A stretch of 32,479 nt of DNA from Atractiella rhizophila (lineage: Eukaryota): contig MU271370.1 in the NCBI GenBank assembly GCA_021432655.1, positions 25,862 to 58,340 of the forward strand. Reading direction: 5' to 3'. A model generated the notes under the pieces. The model was given only the letters and a program-made list of their open reading frames with translations, searched no databases and had not been told where the DNA came from. The translations under genes and the position numbers were made by a program. How positions within the stretch are numbered: the first letter of the stretch is position 1; each line of letters opens with the position of its first letter. This document shows, piece after piece, positions 2,973-18,867 of the stretch.

Positions 2973-3393
2973 TGTTTCTTAGACGGTAAAGGGATTCGTT
3001 CAGTTCAATGTGGCGTTCGAAAAATGACCTGGGTCATGTGACCTTCATTTTTGGTGAGAGCTCCGAGCTTCAAGGTGAGGACTTCAGCATAGCGACGGCT
3101 TCAAGATGTGGGCAGTGGGAACGACTGCAGAAAACGATACAGGATATACTTTGACTCCATTGCACAGGGGACGAGTACCAATCGTTTTGTTTATAGAATA
3201 GAGGCTTCTTTGACTGGAGCTAAGTACTTTGAGAAGGGGGGAAAGATGCGGTTGAATGTACAAGTTGAATGATGGGGAGTACTGATCGTTCAAGCAGACA
3301 ATAGATATTCTTCAAACACCAACTTGAAGAGCAAAGAATTCAACAACGATCCACAACACAAACCCGACATGTTGATCCTTCCTTCGACTTTGA

Positions 3394-6300
3394 TCAACGA
3401 GACCAAGTTGGGGAAGAGTTATATCTCGTGCCACCGTTAGTCGACCCAAGACCATTAGTTCTCCCATTGGTTGCTGGAGAAGTCGGCGTGAACGCATTCG
3501 GAGAAGTCGGACTCCATGCTGGAGACTTCGGTGACATGCCGTTAACACCATGCATCTGAGGAGATGTAGGACTATCCGACATGCATCAGCTTCAAGACGA
3601 TCAAGAGGGGATGGTAAAAGTGCGAACCTGAACGCTGGGCTAGCAGGCGAGTATGTTGGTGAAGCTTTCGGTCCCCCTTGTGATGGAGAGAAAGCGGGGG
3701 AGACGGGGGAGAAGCGAGGAGAACTTGGAGAGAACCTTGGCGAGGCAGCTGCAAAGTTCGGGCTAGTTGGCCTGTAATTTTGTCAGGTAAAGCCAACAGA
3801 TGCAAAAAAAAGTGACGAACGAGAAACGTGGACTTTGAGGGCTGAAGGAAGGAGAAGTTGGACTGAATCTTGGAGACTGGGGACTGAACCTTGGGGAGGA
3901 AGGACTAAAGGCAGGGCTAGCGGCTCCCCATCGACCAGTGGATGCACCAGTTGGGCTAAAGTATTTCTAAGCAGACTGCATGATCCGCAATATGAAACTT
4001 ACCGTCCCATAGGAGAAGTAGGACTGAACCGCGGACTGCTGGGAGAAAACGCCGGAGACGCAGGTGAAGCATGTATTCCCGGCGAGGTGGGGGAGTAGCC
4101 AACAGACATGCGATCCACCCAGGGTGACTGTGCACCGTAAGGGCTCGCAAACGCTGGGGATGTGCCACCATATCTTGGAGAAGTCGGACCATACGAAGGA
4201 CTGTTAGGGGAGTAGTGCGGACCTAAATACGAAGTTAGGCTTATACCCTTGAATTGCAGAAAAGCTTCTCACTAGATGGACTGTATCCAGCAGCACCGCT
4301 CCCGAGACCAGCCCCGTAAGGTGAAGCTGCACCATAACCAGAAGCGAAAGGATTAGAAGGTCCAGTGAAATCCTCCTGACCAGGATGCACGACGGGTGAG
4401 AACGCAGCCATAGGCAAAGCCTCTTCGTAAGGTCTCGCAGGCGTGCGACCATCAGCGTAGTCTGCGTAAGGTGTCATTGCCCCACCTGGGGTCATTGCAC
4501 CGTCGATTCCGTGAGGCATAAAAGCGACCGTTGGTAGGCGATGGTCGACAACGACGTCCTTCAATGCCTCGTCATCAAGTGCAATCTCGAAGCAGCCGGT
4601 TCCCATTGGAGCAACTTGACCAAGTAAAACATTCTCCGCCACGGCTGTGCAAGCGTCCTGCTCTCCGTTCGCCGCTGCGTCCATCAAAATTTCCACTGTC
4701 TCTTCGAACGAACACCTCATCAAAGCTCCAGTCTCAGCTCGGTTGATACCGTGGCGCGTAATAGACATGAGGGAACCACGATTTGTCATAAGATCGCAGA
4801 GAAGATAGAGATGGCGGTAGTTGACGTAGGACGATTCGAACTCGATAACGTTGCGCAACTCTTGAAAAACTGATGCCCTCGCCGCTTCGATCCCCAGCGT
4901 ATCAAATATCTCCACACAGTTGTTCGAAACTGTCCGACGACTATCGACTCCATCTACGCAAAGCACTTTGCGCAGATTCGTGCCATCCGTCTCCAACACC
5001 CACTCAACATCACCAGCGGGGTTGAACTCGCCAGCAGGTGTGATGGTAACCTTTTTCTCCTTGATCATGTACACCCTCTCGACGCCTTCGACGCCACGTA
5101 ACGTGATACTCGACAGCATGGACTGCTCAAGTTGCTTCAGAAAAATGTCTTCCTCTATCTCGATATCGTCGTCGTCATCTTTATCGCGCAACGGTCGACA
5201 ACGTATAACGAGCTTTTCGGCAGTATCCTCAGACCACATGACGAAGAGATCGTTCTGGAAAATTTCCGAAATCTTCCCAGCAACATACGCCATCTCCAAG
5301 TTCTTGTCCAACATTTTCGCACGATCCAACTCAAGGCGAAGGAGCCATTCGGACTGTCGGGTGATATTTTGCTCCATTTCCTCATCCGGGATGGCGAAGG
5401 TGGCTTCCACAAAGTCACGATCCTCTTCGATGATGGTCGTCGTTGGATTGGGGTCGTAGAAAATTTGCGATGAGGAAACTACAGTTCGTAAGGTCGTATG
5501 AGCGAGCTCCGTGGAGAGCTGTTTCGCTTTTCGCTGGTCACTGGCTATTTCTGGGCTGAGGAAGACTTTGAGAGACGGTGTCTTGATGTTACGAGCGACG
5601 TTGATGATCTCCTTCAAGCGAGGTACTCCTAACGTGACGTTCTTGCTCGACACACCGGCGAAGTGGAAGGTGTTGAGCGTCATCTGCGTTGCAGGTTCTC
5701 CAATCGACTGAGCTGCTAGTGTACCACACATCTCTCCTGGGTGGACTATCGACTGATTGAACTTTGACTCCACCTCTCCAAGTACCCACTCGAACGCTTC
5801 CTTGTTCAAGTGAAACTCTTGAAGAATGCGCTTAGACGCAAAATTTGAACGAACAAGAATCTGAAACATCAGGGTTGCATTCTGCTGCGCTTCCTCTGTC
5901 AGGGCATCATCCCCTCGGACGACGACCAGGCGTTTGAGAAGCTCCTGGACGCCAACGACGATATCAGCAGGAGGGAGGTCGGAAGGCTTTCGGACATCGA
6001 TATGAAAGATTTGTTGCGCATTCTTGAGGATACGCTTGATGTTGACCGGGAGGGCTTTGCGGTTGCTGCCGTCCTTGAAGATGTACGTCCGAAGAAGCTC
6101 CCTGTCCTCGAGCAGTTGTCGGTACTCCTCATCGAGGAGGGCTTGAAGGTCGATCGAGCTGTCGGCCAATCCAATTTGCAACGTCCCCTCCTTAAACCTC
6201 CACGCGGGATCCATCACGTCAACTTTGTACATTCGGTCGAAGTCATCGTTCTTCAAGCGAACATAATCGATATTCTGGAACTCCAACATCGCTCCGTCCA

Positions 6301-9300
6301 TCCCATCTTCTCCATATACAAACTGCACGACATCTCCTAGGGAATTTCGCACCGTCCCATCGTACGAAACTTGCACATCCTCCAAAGCCTTAACTAGTCG
6401 ACGCTGGATGTAACCAGTCTCAGCAGTCTTGACGGCGGTATCAATCAAACCTTCTCGTCCAGAAACGGCATGGAAGAAGAACTCCTGCGGAGTCAGACCT
6501 CGTAGGTAAGAGTTCTCGACGAAACCTCTCGATTCTGGGGAATAGTCGTCCTTCGTAAAGTGAGGGAGAGTGCGGTACTTGAATCCGAAAGCGATGCGCT
6601 TTCCTTCGACGGCAGACTGACCGACAAGTGCGGACATTTGGGAGATGTTGATGAAAGTACCCTTCGAACCGGCCGACACCATCTGCTTGACATTATTGTC
6701 GTCCTTCAAACTGACTTGTGCCTTCTTTCCTGCATCGTCACGAGCCTTATCCAAAGCTTTCCGCACTTTCGCCTCGAAACTCTCCCGGATGGTCATTCCC
6801 GGTTCCTGCTCCAACCTATCCTCCTGCGCCATCTGAATCAAGTTTGCAACCTCCGCCTTCGCATGCGAGACGAAACCCGTGATCGCCTCCATAGTCCCTT
6901 TGTCAGGGACCGTGTCACCGATGCCGATGGAAAAGCCGTTGTGGAGGAGCCAGTAGTTTACGACGGTCTGAACGCCACCAATGAAGATCTTTGTCGCCTC
7001 AGCGCCACGTTCGCGGAAAATAACGTGAACCAAACCTCCTTGAGCGGAAGCACCGACGATACCCTTGTTGAGGATGCCATAGATCAACTCGCCGTCATCA
7101 ATCAGGATGGACTTGTCCTGGTAAGGAATGCTCGTCGGGTCGTCCTCGTCGCCTTTCTCAAGGTTGATCCCTGCCGGGATGAGCATGGAGATGATCTGCT
7201 TCCCAGTCCAAAGCGGCTTCGGCTTAAGAATCGTAGGAGGAGGGACGACACCATCCCAATCAGGGACCCAGAGGAGGATATTCTGCACGAATTCGCGATC
7301 CATAAAACAGTCGCGGAGGGTGAATTTGCGAATGCCGAGGAGGGTGTCTTGGATGATACCCATTACGGGTCGGTTGGACTGAGGGGAGACAATCTGTTTT
7401 GAGACCGAAGCGATCTCCTTCAATTCAGCACGCGTTTCCTCTGACTGAGGAACGTGCAAGTTCATCTCGTCGCCATCAAAACTGCAAGCAAGTTAGTGAG
7501 TTGCCTGCAAAACAGGCTATACTCACTCCGCATTATAGGGACTGAGCGCAAAGCGAAATGGAAAGGTCAGTTAAGAATAGAAAGAGTCAGAAAGCGACAT
7601 ACGGCTAAGACAGATTCAGTAACAAGCACCGATGAAAAGATTGAGAGAACCTACAGTTACAGAAAGATTCAGACGGAAAGTAGAATAGTGCATAAGCTTC
7701 ACTCGATGTGCCACTGATATCACTATCAACACTGCACACACTTTTCAAAAGGAAGAGAGAGACTTACTCATACTCATCTTATGCAAACTCGGCTGCCGAT
7801 TGAACAAGACGTAATCCCCATCCTTCAGATGCCTCTCCACGATCCATCCGGACTGTAGGATGCATTCCTGCCTTCTATTATACCTCAAATCTATTCGATC
7901 CCCGGTATCCCTGACGACATATCGTGCTCCTGGATATTCGTTCGGCCCATTCTTCACCAAATTCTGGAGATAGTCGATGTTGTATGGAGTGACACGCTCG
8001 GGGTACGTTAAGTTCCTAGCAATCGAATAGGGAACACCGACTTGATCGAGGGCGAGGTTGGGATCACCGGTGATGACCGTTCGAGCCGAGAAATCGACTC
8101 GCTTTCCCATCAGATTGCCTCGTAGACGTCCTTCTTTTCCCTTCAGACGAGCCCGGATGGACTTGACGGGTCGACCAGACTTCTGGAGCGCCTGAGGTTG
8201 TCCTGGCAGGTCATTGTCCATGTACGTCGCAATATGCCACTACATCCTCAGTTGTCAGCTTCAAGCTTCGATAAAATATGTCAGTAGAGAGAAAACAAAC
8301 CTGTAAAAGACTTTCAGCTTCCGACGTAACATGACCTGGTGCACCCTCACTCTCCAACCTCTTTAGGTTGATGTTGGCTTTCAGGATTTCCGCAAGCTTG
8401 TAGGTCAAATCATCCTCGCTCCTCAACATTCCAGTTGAGATGGAGGGTCGTACAGGTGGAGGAGGGACGGGGAGAACGGTGAGGATCATCCACTGGGGAT
8501 GGGCCTCGGTAGGATGCAGTCCGAGCGTCAGAAGGTCTTCGTTCGGAATCTTCCGAAGGAGTTGGAGACAAGAACCTGCACTGAATTGACGACGGTCCGA
8601 TTGAGGCGCTGGGTTGTCCTGAGGGTATGGAATGTGTCAGTCATGTGAGCATACATGACTGGGAATTGTGGGAAATAGAGAAGTATAACTCATTGAAAAA
8701 CGCGAGGAATGAACAATAATGTACAACAAAGCTTTCAAGCAACACAGGATCGGAAGCTCTCTTGTACACTGAAGTGCCTCTGGATTGAGAGTCCAACAAC
8801 GGAGTTCAACTACAAAGACTGCTCCAAATGTAAAAGAGAGCGAATACGAAAGTCGTGGCTCAGGCGAGTCAGCGACAGAAAACACATGCTCCGTCACGAA
8901 ACCATTGTTCTTCATTGTAAGACGAGACACGAAAAATGGACATACCTCACTCCTTTTCTGATTGTACACCAAAAACAGCTTCAACCCCTCCCTCCTAATC
9001 AACGGCTGAGCATGTCCGCAACCTCCATGACCCTTCTTCTCCGGTTTGGACGGATCGACCGTCTCCGGATCTGGGTCCTCTTCGCAGATTCTCCGTGTCT
9101 TAGCAATCTTGTGCACCTCCGCCAACCTCTTCGCTGGATTGCGTGTATGTCGTAGGATGGAGACGATACGCTGGTCGTCGTACTGGTTGATGAGGAGTTT
9201 GCCACATTGAACGCAGATGGATTCGAGGATCTTCTTCATTCGTCCAAGGAAACCAATGTGATACACAGGTGCGGACAGCTCGATGTGACCAAAATGCCCA

Positions 9301-9624
9301 GAACCTGTCCGAATCACGATAGAGTACATGAGCTCCCATGCTTCTCGCCACCCTTCCTTTCTGGAGACACGAAAAAAGGGACGTACACTCTGTCATTCCC
9401 TCTCCGCACGTTGCACACTTAAACTCCCTCTCAGTAGTCCCCATCCTCCTATCCGCCAAGCCTCCCGTCTTCACCTTCCCTGCCAACTGACCTCCCTCCT
9501 CATAGACCTCCGCATGCTCCACCTTGCACACACTCAATGCCTTTATCTCGTGAGGGGGTAAAACGCCAAATTGAATGAGGTTGGGCCGTCGGAGAGGCGC
9601 TTTTGAATGAGGAAATGAAGCCAT
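3394..9624 (-). CDS. RPB1: DNA-directed RNA polymerase II largest subunit
   Basis: 12 phase-consistent exons: 9624-9387, 9304-8946, 8618-8301, 8239-7768, 7713-7655, 7604-7603, 7541-7527, 7481-4273, 4222-4003, 3955-3821, 3771-3628, 3571-3394. Motifs: CATC...[41 protein letters not shown], bridge helix [20 protein letters not shown], trigger loop [13 protein letters not shown]-terminal SP heptads. Confidence 0.98.
3440..4290 (-). repeat. Degenerate RPB1 CTD heptad region interrupted by four introns
   Basis: The spliced translation has about 6 Tyr1 heptads (e.g. [14 protein letters not shown]), about 13 Phe1 heptads (e.g. [21 protein letters not shown]), one WSPTSPN and no exact YSPTSPS. Confidence 0.85.
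7603..7604 (-). other. 2-nt micro-exon (CC) of RPB1
   Basis: Minus strand reads tcttag|CC|gtatgt, flanked by a 50-nt intron (7654-7605) and a 61-nt intron (7602-7542, CTGAC branch site). It is needed to read SVT-P-PYNADFDGD. Confidence 0.85.
8619..8945 (-). other. Unusually long (327 nt) RPB1 intron 2 with internal hairpins
   Basis: gag|gtatgt at 8945 and ctcag|gac at 8619. The other RPB1 introns here are 45-82 nt. Confidence 0.8.
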
Positions 9625-11772
9625 TGAAAGGAACTCGACAAACAGGAACAAGGAATCGAACGAAACTTTTTCTTGTTCTTCTCGAGAATTTTTCGATTTT
9701 TTTCAGAGAATTAAGAATAACACGATTAATAGAAAGTAAAACTGACGCGTTGTCGAGAGAAATACGAAGTTTTCAAGGGATTTAAGAGTTCAAAACCGAA
9801 TCCGACCCTTTCCCCAGAAAATCTCTCTAAAAATTCCGATTTCTTCTCCCAGTCTGGTCCCAGTGCTTCGCAGATGTCCTTCGTGCGCTCGGAAAGAGGT
9901 TCGGAGGCGTGTGAAGGCTGGGTGAGACGGTGTGATGTCGAGGTGTTGGTCGAAAAGGAGAAAACGGTGGCGGCATTTCCGCAGCAGTTTCAAACCACCG
10001 TCATGACTCGCCTCCGCTCAACAATGGGTTCAGCTTCTGTCCCGGTTTTCAAGGCCTTCATCCCTTACAATCCATTGAGATCGTATGAAAACGATATTTA
10101 TGATGTTTCTTTGCTTATATCACCCTTTTTCACGTGTCGGGAAGTTTTCTCCCAGCCCAAAACAGGCTGGAGAAGTGATGTGCCTTATTCACTTTCCGAT
10201 AGCCTCGGATAGGGTTTTTGCGCATCGATTTGCTTTCACAGGAGTCGGCTTGATCAGAGAAAGTCTTCACTGCTTGCGCTGAGATACTTTCAACGAAGTT
10301 CTGTGAAGCTTCAGCGAACAAAAGCTCTGAAAACAGACAACTAAACTGCTCCTCTCGCTCTTAGTAGCTAACCTCAAACCTCTCTGAATACCCAATACCC
10401 GCGCTTCTGTTTCCAACCTATCTTCACATGGGAGCACATCCATGTTTGTCAATCTCAAAATAATTGGAAAACAGGCAAATTTGTCAAGAATTACAACTCC
10501 TTTTGAACAAATCAAATAATGTCACTGCAAATTGTGCCTTCTGTAAATCCCCGTCGAAAATACCAACTTTTCCATAAATTGTGCGAATTCAATGGACAAA
10601 CACACCGTGCCAACCTAGGAACTAGTAATATCTTTGAAACTCGACATCGCGAGTTGAACCTACTGTAAATAGTAGTCTGCATGGTTTTGAGTCAAACTTT
10701 GTCACAGCCAGTAGAGCTTGTTCCTCCAGTTTCTTCGCGTCATTATCTTGACACCATGACGGTGCAGTATGGCGTTGATTGAGCAGAACACTTTCTGTCC
10801 TTCACCAGTGAAAAGGTACAAATCATAGGGGATCCAGTCATGGACAGTCATTACTATCGTATTGAACACAGCTGGGTCCCTTTCCCCCACCTCTAGAGAC
10901 TTCACCAGTTTCATGTTAGCTGAACTCGTAGCCTGTGCTGTAAGTGGATTGCAGGTGAAGGGGGGGCACTGCATACAGGAAGGTGAAAATCCGAATCGGA
11001 CAGACTTACGTCTGAGCAATTAAGCGCTTTTTTATTACAAGGGAGACCCGAGCTCTGGGAGCAAGATTTCGATTTAGCAGGTTGTTATCGTTTCTTTGCC
11101 TTTTGCGACTCAAAAACTCTCAACATCTCCGAGTCAATATTGCCAGTGCTGACCCAAATATTGCGCAACGCTTCTCTGAAGAACTGAGGAACAAAGTTTC
11201 ACAACAGAGTCAGCAACAGAGTATTAGAACAGGGTTGGTACTGTTAAGGAATGGCTGTGCCAAGGTATGCTCCAGGCGTCCCTATGCATAGACTATGCGA
11301 GGACACGGGTGTTCAGGTTAGGGATTCGAACGCTCAAATTCCCCTCTGCCCCCTTGGCCAACGATACTCTATCACTCTCTTTGGCTCATGCTCTCCTCGT
11401 AATGGCGAACCGTTCTGATTTAATGCTCTGTTTCTGCTAAGTCATAGGGTCTGAGGGCACAGATGGTAGTTGGACAAGATAGAGTGGCAAAGTAAGGCCA
11501 CGGTCAACGCGATGGCGAATTTGCATTTACCTATCTTTCGATCTTGCTAGAAGATTGAATGGACGGAGCACGGGGCACATGTTGTGTACCATTACGTTTA
11601 CAAGCTGGAGCAGGAATAATAGAATTTCATTGTAGTGTGAGAACCAATGCTTCGTTCTAAACCTGTCACAGCTTCAAAATCACTGAGCTTGAGAACCCTG
11701 GAAGGAGCGCAGTTTCTTTGGCAGGAGATGATGAAATCACGGCCGCGCCGTTATGCGAAAGCAATACCTCAT

Positions 11773-13464: not shown

Positions 13465-16437
13465 ATGCACCTCCCGTCGTTCTCGCTCGCTCCAATATTA
13501 ACTGCTCTCACGACAACAATCACCAGCCTTTTATACGTGCCCGGAGTCACGGCTTTTGTGCCCGCTTACCCTTCGAACGACTTGAGCGCTCTCATCGGAG
13601 GGACGGGGGCCGCTCAGAACGAGTATCTAAAGTTGACGCTGTGGGGTGAGGGCCAGGGAATGGCGTTCGTCTTTCTTTCTCTCCGTCTTTCTCAGATTGG
13701 TTGTTGATTGGATTTGGATGGGCGTTGTGGGTTGGGTTGCATGTCGGTGGTGTAGTGGCGAATACAAGATTTGGCTGAGCAAACAACTGGGAGAGATGCA
13801 GTGGCTCGTTGATGCCGATGGGGACAATGTTCTGAGAGAGAAGACCGACACAGGGAAAAAGGTGTGCCATTCTTTCCTTAGTATTTAATTTTGCGTCGTT
13901 TGGAAGGGAGACCGGGAGGAGAGAGTGTGAGCGAGTGAGATGTTGAATGAGGGACCTTCGACTTCGATTAGAGGGTGAAGGATGGAGAAACAGAAGAACT
14001 CGCCCTGCCCTCGTCCTTCTTGTTCAGATCACATTCTTATTATCTATTGAAGAGCGAACCGACGGCAAGTGACATTGATGATGTGCCGTTTGCGTCCTTT
14101 TCGCCTTCATTGTTTCTCTTCTGAACGCTTCCTCTGAGCAGAAGCGGAGCCTCTGTTCCATCCAACGGGGGTCCTATGATCCACTTTCCCAGTCCGTTTC
14201 CGTTCTCCCGTATCTTGCCAACTGGCATCGCTTCATCGTGCCACTTTGTTATTTTGTGTTTGGAGACAGGGGTCGAGTGGGATGCGGGGAAGAAACCAGC
14301 AAATTCGGTGTTGTTAGCTGCTTCGTTACTCCATTCCCAGAGCTATGTTCGCTGGAGTGTGGTCTGAGTGTGGTAACATCAACAGTTTCAGCTGTTCTGT
14401 CTCCACAACTCTCAAACCGTCTATCACCTGCCTCCCTTGACTTACAAAATAGCAGCCTGTAGTCTTTAAATGGCAGAACTAGGCAGTGATGGAATTAGAA
14501 GGAATGGTTACGGCTTCAAATGATCCTTGTGTCGTTACGGCGAGGCTCGAGGAGATGTCCAAAGGCTATAGAGACCTACGTCAGGAGGGGATGCTTATCT
14601 CCTCCCCTTGACTATTGCGTGGCTTTCCATCCCTAGTAGAAGTTCTTGAACTGTGAGATATTCGAAGCAAATACTGACGTCTTGCTGTTGTTGGATCTGA
14701 AAGGGTGTACTGCTCCATCTTCACGAGAACAACTCCACCGAACCCCTCACTTCCGTGCCGTGGGTCGCATTCATTTCCTGTGACCACAATATCACATCCT
14801 TCGATCCAACCACTCCGAACAACACAAACATCATCACCCTTGCGAAGCGAAAGGGGGCAACAGCTGTTGTCCTCTACAGCTTGCAGAACGAGACTTGCAT
14901 CGTCAATCCCAATTATCTTGCCGATACTGGTTTCGACGAGACCCAAGATAGCATTATGGTGGGAGTGACGACGGATTTGAAGAATACAAGGTTGGTGGAA
15001 GGACAGTTCGCGTACGTTTGCGTCGTCTATTGCTCACTGAATGCAAAACTCAACCAAATGGACAGCGTGGCTGGTGCTGCTTCCTATTGGTTCAACTCCT
15101 CCCTCCTGAATTCATCCTCTACTCCCATCGAGACCTTCCTCAATAATTTCAACATCACAGTCCCCGAGGAACCCGTGTCTACTACGACTGACGAAGTCTC
15201 CCCGTCCGCTGCTTCTGTTGCCGCTTCCCCAACTGCCAGCTCTGCTGGCCAAGAAACTGACAACTCTCAACATGTTGCCGAACCCTCTCGACGATCGCTT
15301 CGTCGGCAAGTCTCTCCATCCAACAATGCGAGCGTGCCCCTCTTCCTCCTCTCCGTGATGGCCTCCATGAACTCCACCCTGGCACAGGGGAATGGGACGG
15401 ATAATACGATTCCGAACCAGGGAAACGATGGAGACAAACGCGGACCGAATACCTCCTTGGCCATGATCATCCTCTATGCGATCACGGGTTGTGTCACCTT
15501 CATGTTCATCATCGTCATCATGTCTGGCGCCATTCGTGCCATCAGACATCCTGATCGGTATGGTCCCAGAGCGGCAGATGCGGCTGGAGGAAGAGGTGGC
15601 CAAACCGTAGCTAGGGGACTGACGAGGGCTATTCTGGATACTTTCCCGGTCGTCAAGTTCGGACGGACGAGTGAGGATGGAGGCGCGAGGAGGGACGGGG
15701 AGTCTTCAATTGAAGAAGCCGGAGAAGAGGCGAAGAAGTCGGTCACGACCGTGGAATTGGCGGATTTGAAGAAGGCAGATGGAGTTAATGGAGAGATGAC
15801 GGATGGAACGAAGAAGGGGGAGGGGAAGTCGGAGAGGGCGTCTGAGTCGACTGAGCCCGAGGTCACGGCTGCTGATGTCCATCATCTCGATGTGCAACAT
15901 CTCTCTTCTGAACCTGAAATCGAAGTCGCCTCCACCGCCACGGATGCTGCCGCCTCGGAGGACTCGAAAGGGAAGCGCAGGTCGATGTCTCCTCCGCCAA
16001 CCACAGCAGCAGCGACGACGACGGCCCCAGCGACAGATGATCCGACCCAAATCGACTCAGAACACACTTGCCCCATCTGCGTGGACTCTTTCAACGACGG
16101 AGACGACATCCGTATCCTTCCGTGCGACCAACGTCACAGATTCCACCGGGACTGCATCGACCCCTGGCTGCTCAACATGTCTCCTCTCTGTCCGCTATGT
16201 CGCTTGGACCTCTCTCGCCGTCGCGGAGAGGGAGAGGAGGAAGAGGTGGTGGAAGATCATGAACACAACGAAGAGTGGGATGCGGGGAAGAAACCAGCAA
16301 ATTCGGTGTTGTTAGCTGCTTCTTACTCCATTCCCAGAGCTATGTTCTCTGGCGTTTGGTCTGAGTGTGGTAACATCAACAGTTTCAGCTGTTCTTTCTC
16401 CACAACTCTCAAACCGTCCATCACCTGCCTCCCTTGA
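13465..16437 (+). CDS. Signal peptide / PA-like luminal domain / TM / RING-H2 E3 ubiquitin ligase, using the first duplicated copy; C-terminus replaced by ~55 intron-derived residues
   Basis: Exons 13465-13664 (signal peptide MHLPSFSLAPILTAL...), 13756-13861, 14704-15011, 15066-16437. PWVAFISCD and AKRKGATAVVLYS luminal motifs, TM LAMIILYAITGCVTFMFIIVIMSGAI, RING-H2 CPIC...LPCDQRHRFHRDCIDPWL...CPLC. Confidence 0.8.
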
Positions 16438-18248
16438 CTTACAAAATAGCAGCCTGTAGTCTTTAGATGGCAGAACTAGGCAGTGATGTAATTAGAAGGA
16501 ATGGTGACGGCTTCAAATGATCCTTGTGTCGTTACGGCGAGACTCGAGGAGACGTCCAAAGGCTATCTCATCTCCTTGACTATTGTGCTGCTTGTGCCTT
16601 TCCATCCCTAACGGAAGTTCTTGTTCTGTGAGAGATTCAAAGCAAATACTGACGCCTTGCTGTTGCATTGGATTTGGAAGGGGGTACTGCTCCATCTTCA
16701 CGAGAACAACTCCACCGAACCCCTCACCACCGTGCCGTGGGTCGCATTCATTTCCTGTGACCACAATATCACATCCTTCGATCCAACCACTCCGAACAAT
16801 ACAAACATCATCACCCTCGCAAAGCGAAAAGGAGCAACAGCCGTCGTCCTCTACAGCTTGCAGAACGAGACTTGCATCGTCAATCCCAATTATCTTGCTG
16901 ATACTGGTTTCGACGAGACCCAAGATAGCATTATGGTCGGAGTGACGACGGATTTGAAGAATACAAGGTTGGTGGAAGGACAGTTCGCGTACGTTTGCAT
17001 CGTCTATTGCTCACTGAACGAAAAACTCAACCAAATGGACAGCGTGGCTGGTGCTGCTTCGTATTGGTTCAACTCCTCCCTCCTGAATTCATCCTCTACT
17101 CCCATCGAGACCTTCCTCAATAATTTCAACATCACAGTCCCCGAGGAACCCGTGTCTACTACGACTGACGAAGTCTCCCCGTCCGCTGCTTCTGTTGCCG
17201 CTTCCCCAACTGCCAGCTCTGCTGGCCAAGAAACTGACAACTCTCAACATGTTGCCGAACCCTCTCGACGATCGCTTCGTCGGCAAGTCTCTCCATCCAA
17301 CAATGCGAGCGTGCCCCTCTTCCTCCTCTCCGTGATGGCCTCCATGAACTCCACCCTGGCACAGGGGAATGGGACGGATAATACGATTCCGAACCAGGGA
17401 AACGATGGAGACAAACGCGGACCGAATACCTCCTTGGCCATGATCATCCTCTATGCGATCACGGGTTGTGTCACCTTCATGTTCATCATCGTCATCATGT
17501 CTGGCGCCATTCGTGCCATCAGACATCCTGATCGGTATGGTCCCAGAGCTGCAGATGCGGCTGGAGGAAGGGGTGGCCAAACCGTAGCTAGGGGGCTGAC
17601 GAGGGCTATTCTGGATACTTTCCCGGTCGTCAAGTTCGGACGGACGAGTGAGGATGGAGGCGCGAGGAGGGACGGGGAGTCTTCAATTGAAGAAGCCGGA
17701 GAAGAGGCGAAGAAGTCGGTCACGACCGTGGAATTGGCGGATTTGAAGAAGGCAGATGGAGTTAATGGAGAGATGACGGATGGAACGAAGAAGGGGGAGG
17801 GGAAGTCGGAGAGGGCGTCAGAGTCGACTGAGCCCGAGCTCACAGCCGCTGATGCCCATCATCTCGATGTCCAACATCTCTCTTCTGAACCCGAAATCGA
17901 AGTCGCATCCACCGCCACAGATGCTGCCACCTCGGAGGACTCGAAAGGGAAGCGCAGATCGATGTCTCCTCCGCCAACCACAGCAGCAGCGACCACGACG
18001 GCCCCAGCGACAGATGATCCCACCCAAATCGACTCAGAACACACTTGCCCCATCTGCGTGGACTCTTTCAACGACGGAGACGACATCCGTATCCTTCCGT
18101 GCGACCAACGTCACAGATTCCACCGGGACTGCATCGACCCCTGGCTGCTCAACATGTCTCCTCTCTGTCCGCTATGTCGCTTGGACCTCTCTCGCCGTCG
18201 CGGAGAGGGAGAGGAGGAAGAGGTGGTGGAAGATCATGAACACAACGA
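14275..18248. repeat. ~2-kb intragenic tandem duplication (copy A 14275-16271, copy B 16273-18248)
   Basis: Both copies start gagtgggatgcggggaagaaaccagc and end gaacacaacga. The coding parts are near-identical. The intronic parts 14560-14700 and 16550-16680 differ by indels. Confidence 0.97.
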
Positions 18249-18669
18249 GGACGTGCGACCGCCATGGTTGGATGCAGACGCTATACCCCCACCTCACCCT
18301 TCTTGGGAACCACCGAGTCCGGCTGAGAGAGCAGTGAGGAGCGTGGGACGGTTCGTGAGGCGGAAAATCCAGGAGAGGTCGGCGTCGTCCGCGAGCGACA
18401 CCCCCGTTGTCGGTGGTGTTGTTTCCGCCCATGAAGCGGCGGGGGAGCCTTCGACGAGTTCAGCAATGCATGGGGATGCGGCGCAGGGGTTCACACCCAG
18501 CAGGTTCGCTAGGTATATCAGTGCTATGCGTGTGCGGAGGGGACAAGGACAAGGAAGGAGAAATGCGAATCCTTCTACAATCTCTGGGAACGGTGTTGCC
18601 GCCAGCAGTATACCAGAGGAAACTGCGAACACTGACGAGGCTGGAGAGGGGGAAGCGAGACGGTCATGA
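16681..18669 (+). CDS. Second copy of the TM-RING-H2 E3 3' exons, carrying the original C-terminus but no signal-peptide exons of its own
   Basis: Acceptor ggaag|GGG GTA CTG at 16680/16681, 54-nt intron 16989-17042, intact frame through the RING-H2 to TGA 18669. Confidence 0.8.
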   Translation, partial: GVLLHLHENNSTEPLTTVPWVAFISCDHNITSFDPTTPNNTNIITLAKRKGATAVVLYSLQNETCIVNPNYLADTGFDETQDSIMVGVTTDLKNTRLVEGQFAYVCIVYCSLNEKLNQMDSVAGAASYWFNSSLLNSSSTPIETFLNNFNITVPEEPVSTTTDEVSPSAASVAASPTASSAGQETDNSQHVAEPSRRSLRRQVSPSNNASVPLFLLSVMASMNSTLAQGNGTDNTIPNQGNDGDKRGPNTSLAMIILYAITGCVTFMFIIVIMSGAIRAIRHPDRYGPRAADAAGGRGGQTVARGLTRAILDTFPVVKFGRTSEDGGARRDGESSIEEAGEEAKKSVTTVELADLKKADGVNGEMTDGTKKGEGKSERASESTEPELTAADAHHLDVQHLSSEPEIEVASTATDAATSEDSKGKRRSMSPPPTTAAATTTAPATDDPTQIDSEHTCPICVDSFNDGDDIRILPCDQRHRFHRDCIDPWLLNMSPLCPLCRLDLSRRRGEGEEEEVVEDHEHNEDVRPPWLDADAIPPPHPSWEPPSPAERAVRSVGRFVRRKIQERSASSASDTPVVGGVVSAHEAAGEPSTSSAMHGDAAQGFTPSRFARYISAMRVRRGQGQGRRNANPSTISGNGVAASSIPEETANTDEAGEGEARRS

Positions 18670-18867
18670 TTCTTCTGAGCGCATTCATTTCGTGTTTGAC
18701 CTTGTTTCCTTTTTATAATGCTTCGCTTGATTCGCTTCAGTGTGTGTAGTGTATAGTACGTTTGCTTAGTGGACATTGGATCATATGCAAAGGTCGTCTC
18801 CTCTCATCTCATCGTCCAATTGAGTACCCCTCCTGTTCCAGGGATGTCACAACTTGCATGGACCACC

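Follow-up and report, generated by a model that had tools for sequence, protein, structure and literature searches.

An RPB1 gene of RNA polymerase II (Pol II) was located in a 32,479-nt stretch of DNA from Atractiella rhizophila (assembly GCA_021432655.1, contig MU271370.1, forward-strand positions 25,862-58,340), referred to below as the window. The gene is the functional, expressed RPB1 of this fungus (Pucciniomycotina, Atractiellomycetes), and its product carries a set of substitutions concentrated in the funnel helices, bridge helix and trigger loop. The set was tentatively interpreted as a compensatory re-packing of the interface between these three elements on a long, isolated branch, with a probability of roughly 0.45. 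An original prediction, made from the sequence alone, had proposed the same region as a remodelled alpha-amanitin pocket and hence as candidate natural toxin resistance.

Residues were numbered according to Saccharomyces cerevisiae (Sc) Rpb1, counted off alignment blocks with the solved chains, query residue 203 corresponding to Sc residue 679. The relevant codons are as follows.

6461..6751, minus strand: codons for Rpb1 residues 723-819 (funnel helices, region F and the N-terminal half of the bridge helix)
6749..6751, minus strand: D723, codon GAT (N723D)
6656..6658, minus strand: T754 (S754T)
6626..6628, minus strand: L764, codon CTT (C764L), the site of the C. elegans allele C777Y
6614..6616, minus strand: S768, codon TCT (Q768S)
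6611..6613, minus strand: A769, codon GCC (S769A)
6590..6592, minus strand: A776 (P776A), A also being present in S. cerevisiae
6464..6466, minus strand: V818, codon GTT (M818V), bridge helix
6461..6463, minus strand: S819, codon TCT (A/G819S), bridge helix
5660..5662, minus strand: F1086 in the trigger loop (Y1086F), beside the retained H1085, F also being present in S. cerevisiae

Translation of the minus strand at 6461-6751 gave region F as ALDKARD and the bridge helix as FHAVSGREG, as had been predicted, and alignment to the solved chains together with a codon check recovered all six predicted changes (N723D, C764L, Q768S, S769A, M818V and G819S). The last of these holds relative to S. cerevisiae, whereas relative to basidiomycetes the change is A-to-S. 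The list was correct as far as it went but had missed S754T, P776A and Y1086F. Codon by codon, L722, R726, I756, Q760, Q767, G772, H816, G820, E822 and H1085 are unchanged, five of which (R726, Q760, Q767, E822 and H1085) had been named as retained. The TCT codon of Q768S differs from CAA/CAG at 3 of 3 bases and C764L needs at least 2 base changes; such multi-base differences mark old, multi-step changes and not read errors.

Sequences for comparison were taken from a search of a 5.8-billion-protein collection, in which a 1776-aa NCBI protein named Atractiella rhizophila (P0003) matched at 100% and was followed by RPB1 of rusts, Microbotryum and Rhodotorula at no more than 79% over the 271-aa query region. 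The fungal comparison set comprised 232 other RPB1s, namely the 119 best fungal matches (from the best 120 of 7700 protein matches) and added Agaricomycetes. A second set of 384 sequences combined the 119 best fungal matches with 150 eukaryote-wide 50%-identity representatives and 115 shorter fragments.

Within the fungal set all 229 sequences readable at 723 had N and all 230 readable at 768 had Q, and position 818 was M throughout the 232. Position 819 was A in 214 and G in 18, position 754 was S in 229 and position 776 was P in 230 of the 232, and Y1086 was found in all 67 other aligned full-length fungi. The 119 best fungal matches alone gave the same picture, with N723, Q768 and M818 invariant and 819 occupied by A (103) or G (16). 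Conservation at 764 is less complete, with C in 222 of 232 fungi and L in three others (among the 119 best matches: C 111, V 4, L 3, S 1). Position 769 is hypervariable (S169, I36, N14, V9 and M2 of 232). The original count of six normally conserved positions thus stands for four near-invariant ones, 723, 768, 818 and 819 (the last as small A/G), is weaker for 764 and fails for 769.

The derived residues are private to the Atractiella lineage in every set examined, with look-alikes of individual states elsewhere in eukaryotes. Among the 150 eukaryote representatives D723 was seen in 2, S768 in 1, V818 in 3, S819 in 11 and L764 in 4, and among the 115 shorter fragments D723 was seen in 3 and S768 and V818 in 0. 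N723D occurs in P0147, P0218, P0333, P0334 and P0338, Q768S in P0166, and the V818-S819 pair in P0251. At 80 metagenome loci no derived state was found at 723, 754, 768, 776 or 819, and M818 was kept in 79. Seven of the 384 other RPB1s share at least two of seven Atractiella derived states; none shares more than three.

The distribution of changes along the protein was assessed in an alignment of P0003 with 67 other matches of at least 1580 aa, the core being defined as P0003 residues 1-1480. Sequences shorter than 1580 aa and P0002, an odd multi-stretch Rhizopus fragment, were left out. The catalytic module was defined as Sc residues 719-776, 810-830 and 1078-1095 and holds 60 of the 341 strictly invariant core columns. 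Atractiella differs at five of these 341 columns (N723D, Q768S, P776A, M818V and Y1086F), and all five lie in the module (Fisher p = 0.00015). At columns at least 97% conserved 6 of 18 Atractiella changes fall in the module (p = 0.017), and at columns at least 90% conserved 7 of 39 (p = 0.12).

Six of 17 private Atractiella changes lie in the module, against 17 of 233 pooled for the 67 other taxa (p = 0.002), and no other taxon among the 68 aligned has more than two private module changes; the other long-branch taxa have 0 of 24 (P0032), 0 of 12 (S. pombe) and 2 of 18 (P0110). A comparison with equally conserved sites in a broad fungal RPB1 set had been suggested with the original prediction, and the residues, being private and over-represented in the module, are neither common across the lineage nor at the level of background divergence. 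Branch lengths were estimated by partitioned LG+G4 likelihood on a fixed FastTree topology. For the module the Atractiella terminal branch measured 0.469, or 10.0% of tree length, against 0.446, or 3.8%, for the rest of the core, a 2.6-fold relative acceleration.

The gene structure was mapped by tblastn of P0003 against the window and from intron joints in spliced RNA contigs (runs X3, X4, X5 and X9).

3394..9624, minus strand: RPB1 coding region, ATG at 9624-9622, TGA at 3396-3394, 11 exons
9624-9385, 9302-8945, 8617-8301, 8239-7768, 7713-7655 and 7541-7527 (micro-exon), minus strand: RPB1 exons 1-6
7481-4271, 4220-4003, 3955-3820, 3770-3628 and 3571-3394, minus strand: RPB1 exons 7-11
7527..7541, minus strand: 15-nt micro-exon directly before the catalytic DFDGD, with canonical borders (cag before it, gtgagt after it)
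3394..4220, minus strand: C-terminal repeat domain, mostly FSPxSPx heptads

The pocket stretch lies in frame inside an open frame of 1083 codons at 4241-7492 on the minus strand. Among solved chains, the translation of the pocket exon matched S. pombe Rpb1 (E = 1.1e-239) and S. cerevisiae Rpb1 (1.4e-215) and was far weaker against Pol III RPC1 (2.7e-97) and yeast Pol I RPA190 (6.8e-61). P0003 carries the Rpb1 domain set (PF04997, PF00623, PF04983, PF05000, PF04998, PF04992, PF04990 and PF05001). Its 90% identity cluster has one member, and no second Atractiella RPB1 was found among the best 120 of 7700 matches in the protein collection; RPB1 is apparently single-copy in Atractiella.

Twenty sequencing runs contain the window or part of it, three of them at least half of its sampled words, and contigs of runs X3, X4, X5 and X9 were compared with window positions 3200-9800. 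Runs X3 (depth ∼900) and X4 contain spliced contigs covering RPB1, the introns having GT..AG ends on the gene strand, which shows that the gene is transcribed and processed. Across the funnel codons no difference from the window appears in X5 (6495-6769) or X4 (6522-6715). X3 differs in the pocket range only at 6491 and 6494, the third positions of T809 and L808, both synonymously. Third codon positions account for 24 of the 26 differences listed within the large exon, with 48 further differences beyond those listed; this preponderance places the derived sequence under present-day purifying selection.

Residues of this kind could in principle stem from an error in sequencing or assembly, from a pseudogene, or from a divergent paralogue that accompanies a canonical RPB1, and the region is not free of faults. 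The gene model of P0003 reads T-V-V-P-I-M-R-S-D before F-D-G-D and lacks the universal Y-N-A-D. The spliced X3 and X4 contigs join 7655 to 7481 via 17 nt, so that the mRNA reads T-P-P-Y-N-A-D-F-D-G-D; the catalytic metal-binding motif is intact and the public annotation is wrong at this point. Only 15 of these 17 nt can be accounted for by the window DNA, a sign of some imperfection in the assembly, and the two extra letters may come from a difference between strains or from an assembly error of 2 bases. An artefactual origin of the pocket residues was nevertheless considered very improbable, since the funnel or bridge-helix sequence recurs in three further runs and strain differences are almost all synonymous. 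A pseudogene or paralogue was rejected on the basis of the open frame, the spliced expression, the intact catalytic motif and the single copy among the best 120 of 7700 matches.

Several further observations were made on the gene and the runs. The C-terminal domain contains 13 [YF]SPxSPx heptads (10 F-type and 3 Y-type), five of which end in R, and canonical YSPTSPS is absent. It was considered as an oddity of Atractiella and rejected as such, F-type FSPxSPx heptads being common to rusts, Microbotryum and Rhodotorula and hence a Pucciniomycotina trait. X3 shows partial-depth differences at 3499 (268/574), 6785 (1493/2100) and 9204 (742/2308), as expected for two alleles or nuclei. X5 also has contigs ∼95-96% identical to the window (4469-4736, 5279-5736 and 7481), the loose end at 7481 reading L-S-V-T-S-P-Y-N-A-D, which suggests a near relative, one whose pocket residues could serve to date the changes.

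The interpretation as re-packing draws on yeast genetics. According to excerpts of PMC5127505, the N-terminal hinge of the bridge helix is predicted to lie at M818; M818P is lethal in yeast, while yeast tolerates M818S and M818Y, which suppress strong loss-of-function alleles of the trigger loop and cause sickness in combination with gain-of-function ones. In the same source F1086 lies near funnel-helix residues when the trigger loop is closed and is proposed to orient H1085. Trigger-loop haplotypes of other polymerases, several Pol II enzymes included, are reported in part of PMC12391331 to be defective or lethal in yeast Pol II, which its authors ascribe to coevolution with the surrounding enzyme. 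The funnel, bridge helix and trigger loop pack together, and catalysis and translocation are driven by them. A single change at a contact that is normally fixed would first have been tolerated, and neighbouring changes would then have restored normal trigger-loop and bridge-helix dynamics. The changes would on this scheme be coupled, would have arisen in that order, and may alter the kinetics of the enzyme. Altered bridge-helix dynamics had been offered in the original prediction as an alternative to toxin resistance, and it fits better because M818 is a predicted hinge (PMC5127505, in excerpt). Since the re-packed surface is also the alpha-amanitin site, Atractiella Pol II probably has a lower affinity for amanitin than is usual for the fungal enzyme, as a by-product and not a selected trait.

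A number of points weigh against re-packing. The module segments were drawn after the changed positions were known, and unbiased controls were therefore added. A 100-aa one-dimensional scan gave p = 0.029 for the five strict changes (four of them within 100 aa) and p = 0.44 for 17 changes at columns at least 97% conserved. A toxin-contact list, with bridge-helix and trigger-loop members from the literature and funnel members taken as background, gave weak enrichment (p = 0.027, 0.13 and 0.10 at three thresholds). P0108, P0067 and P0071 also reach 2.6-2.8-fold module acceleration, so the branch-length measure does not single Atractiella out. The best relatives reached 77% among proteins (<595 aa) and 81% among metagenome contigs, and no near relative by which to order or date the changes was found in these. 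Coupling is argued by analogy from yeast genetics at M818 and F1086 and not from the Atractiella substitutions themselves. Finally, 723, 764, 768 and 819 are toxin-contact positions (819 as published in PMC11333700, in excerpt), as target-site resistance also predicts. Overall p ranged from 0.00015 to 0.44 according to the test; the clustering was taken to be real, with moderate support.

An alternative is neutral or nearly neutral drift along a long, sparsely sampled branch, in which the substitutions would be conservative enough for each to be tolerated individually and the clustering would reflect sampling and post hoc choice. In every set its class is represented by Atractiella alone, and the Atractiella terminal branch (0.30) is among the three longest. 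The invariance of N723, Q768 and M818 in 229-232 other fungi from several phyla indicates strong constraint, and a purely neutral origin has to accommodate five of five strict changes falling inside 60 of 341 invariant columns while other long-branch taxa have only 0-2 private module changes. It can point to 11 private Atractiella changes outside the module, to two of the five strict changes (P776A and Y1086F) being the S. cerevisiae state, to the occurrence of each derived state elsewhere in eukaryotes, to the non-significant scan at the 97% threshold and the three similarly accelerated taxa, and to the viability of M818S/Y in yeast without clear phenotype (PMC5127505, in excerpt). Drift was accordingly regarded as possible but doubtful.

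Adaptive target-site insensitivity, the explanation first put forward for this pocket, was judged unlikely. The pocket would have been reshaped under selection by an amatoxin-like or other funnel- or bridge-helix-binding Pol II inhibitor, made by Atractiella itself or by root or soil organisms, with P776A, Y1086F and S754T as compensations for its cost. The location of the changes agrees with such an origin: 723, 764, 768 and 819, with the variable 769, line the toxin site, the set is both private and concentrated, Q768S took several steps at a residue that is invariant in fungi, and the naturally insensitive enzymes of Giardia and African swine fever virus (ASFV) do differ at the toxin site. 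Q768 is said, in work attributed to Bushnell and dated 2002, to bridge amanitin to bridge-helix H816, with N723 and C764 lining the pocket. The hydrogen-bond partners of amanitin, which we take to be R726, Q767, Q768, E822 and H1085, are all kept except Q768. Further mouse resistance alleles are N792D, L745F and I779F, and L722, I756 and 769 (N792) are presumably additional resistance-allele positions.

Laboratory resistance alleles given in excerpts of PMC3276164 are C777Y, R739H and G785E in C. elegans ama-1, R741H in Drosophila and R749P in mouse. The same source equates C. elegans C777 with Sc C764, R739 with R726 and G785 with G772. The predicted correspondence of 764 with C777 was thereby borne out, and that of 769 with mammalian N792 follows from the mouse offset R749 = R726 (PMC3276164, in excerpt). 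Of six resistance-allele positions, among them the three from the excerpts of PMC3276164, two are changed in Atractiella (C764L and S769A), neither to the allele residue. Direct amanitin contacts are reported in part of PMC11333700 for G819, G820 and E822.

Retention of L722, R726, I756, Q767, G772, E822 and H1085 speaks against selection by a toxin at this site, as does the presence of L and not Y at 764, a residue shared with three other fungi. P776A, Y1086F and S754T belong to the trigger-loop/bridge-helix network and are not known to be toxin contacts. Elsewhere among the root and soil fungi of the sets the pocket is canonical. That fungal cells take up amatoxins poorly was likewise counted against an adaptive origin. 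The original prediction was thus upheld in part, for the residues and their place in the pocket, and that location is all the positive support that toxin resistance received. That Atractiella Pol II is insensitive to an amatoxin-like or unknown funnel-binding inhibitor by a new route comprising N723D, Q768S, M818V and A819S was considered distinctly improbable.

Amatoxin producers were examined as fungi whose Pol II must meet the toxin. RPB1 of Amanita phalloides (P0473) and Galerina marginata (P0489) was obtained from the 90%-identity clusters of two Agaricales matches and compared with non-producing relatives (five other Amanita species, Psilocybe, Gymnopilus, Hebeloma and Agaricus). Both producers are canonical, with N723, S754, C764, Q768, S769, P776, M818, A819 and Y1086, and identical to the non-producers at every position changed in Atractiella. 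Known producers therefore do not protect themselves by these residues, and there is no precedent among them for protecting Pol II in this way; this is a negative worth knowing in itself. Amanitin and its processing peptidase are reported to colocalise in vacuoles (PMC9134587, in excerpt). Within 719-777, 812-826 and 1076-1096 the producers differ from their relatives only at 737 (both) and 728 (Galerina). A literature search returned no description of the present substitutions in Atractiella, nor of target-site changes in amatoxin producers.

Position 737 lies just after funnel helix alpha-21 and is M in Amanita phalloides and F in Galerina marginata; it is L in 225 of 232 fungi and in all producer relatives shown. 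The change is one of 23 private changes in A. phalloides and one of 25 in G. marginata, and coincidence is possible.

The genomic neighbourhood was scanned against Pfam using 48 open reading frames (ORFs), comprising 14 of the 35 ORFs that reach 150 aa, together with 34 of the 66 that reach 90 aa in 9800-32479. The scanned neighbours encode a chromate transporter, a TPR protein, a Na/Ca exchanger, two RING fingers, an aminotransferase, DUF6697 and TOM13. None of the 48 was found to belong to the prolyl oligopeptidase, P450, flavin monooxygenase, nonribosomal peptide synthetase or polyketide synthase families, which counts against the toxin explanation. A self-resistance copy beside a biosynthetic cluster was rejected, there being no second RPB1, canonical or otherwise, among the best 120 of 7700 matches and no biosynthetic family among the 48 ORFs. 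Elsewhere in the window a tandem duplication of ∼2 kb spans 14400-18700 (start-to-start spacing 1977-1997, reported stretches 95-96% identical) and yields adjacent RING-H2 finger genes at 14701-16437 and 16612-18669.

A viable, expressed enzyme in which N723, Q768 and M818 have changed together is a natural experiment on the combinations that the module network tolerates, and the Atractiella set provides a natural haplotype for the yeast systems in which epistasis in the Pol II active centre is being mapped. Should the set lower amanitin affinity, it would represent a new route to resistance, of interest for amanitin-based antibody conjugates and selectable markers. Were insensitivity true, it would be the first natural target-site resistance of a fungal Pol II and would hint that the root microbiome contains an inhibitor yet to be discovered.

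The Atractiella set was finally compared with four known systems. One is the epistatic yeast network of trigger loop, bridge helix and funnel helices, in which M818 and F1086 are named nodes and the other Atractiella changes lie in the same helices. In the excerpts of PMC5127505 and PMC12391331 lineage-specific coevolution of these elements is inferred from mutational and statistical studies in yeast, whereas Atractiella offers a natural lineage; none with its combination is described in those excerpts or was found by the literature search. The RPB1 of amatoxin producers is alike in being a fungal Pol II, one obliged to coexist with a funnel-binding toxin, and differs in that it keeps the canonical residues of non-producers both at the contact positions and wherever Atractiella has changed.

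The laboratory resistance alleles affect the same funnel region under the bridge helix, with 764 changed and 769 equivalent to N792. Atractiella differs from them in having C764L and not Y, an S-to-A change at the freely varying 769, and R726, G772, L722 and I756 unchanged, and its changes at 723, 768, 818 and 819 are not among the alleles in the excerpts of PMC3276164. The amanitin-insensitive Pol II of Giardia, which differs at the equivalents of R726, C764 and G772 (cited in PMC3276164, in excerpt), and the amanitin-insensitive RNA polymerase of ASFV, which is altered in the funnel rim helix (PMC10881513), resemble Atractiella in showing natural divergence at the toxin site inside an otherwise conserved enzyme. 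Overall both enzymes have diverged much further, with R726, C764 and G772 altered or a funnel helix broken, whereas the Rpb1 of Atractiella is ordinary for a fungus, shares 79% identity with rust RPB1 over 271 aa, and carries a focused set of changes.

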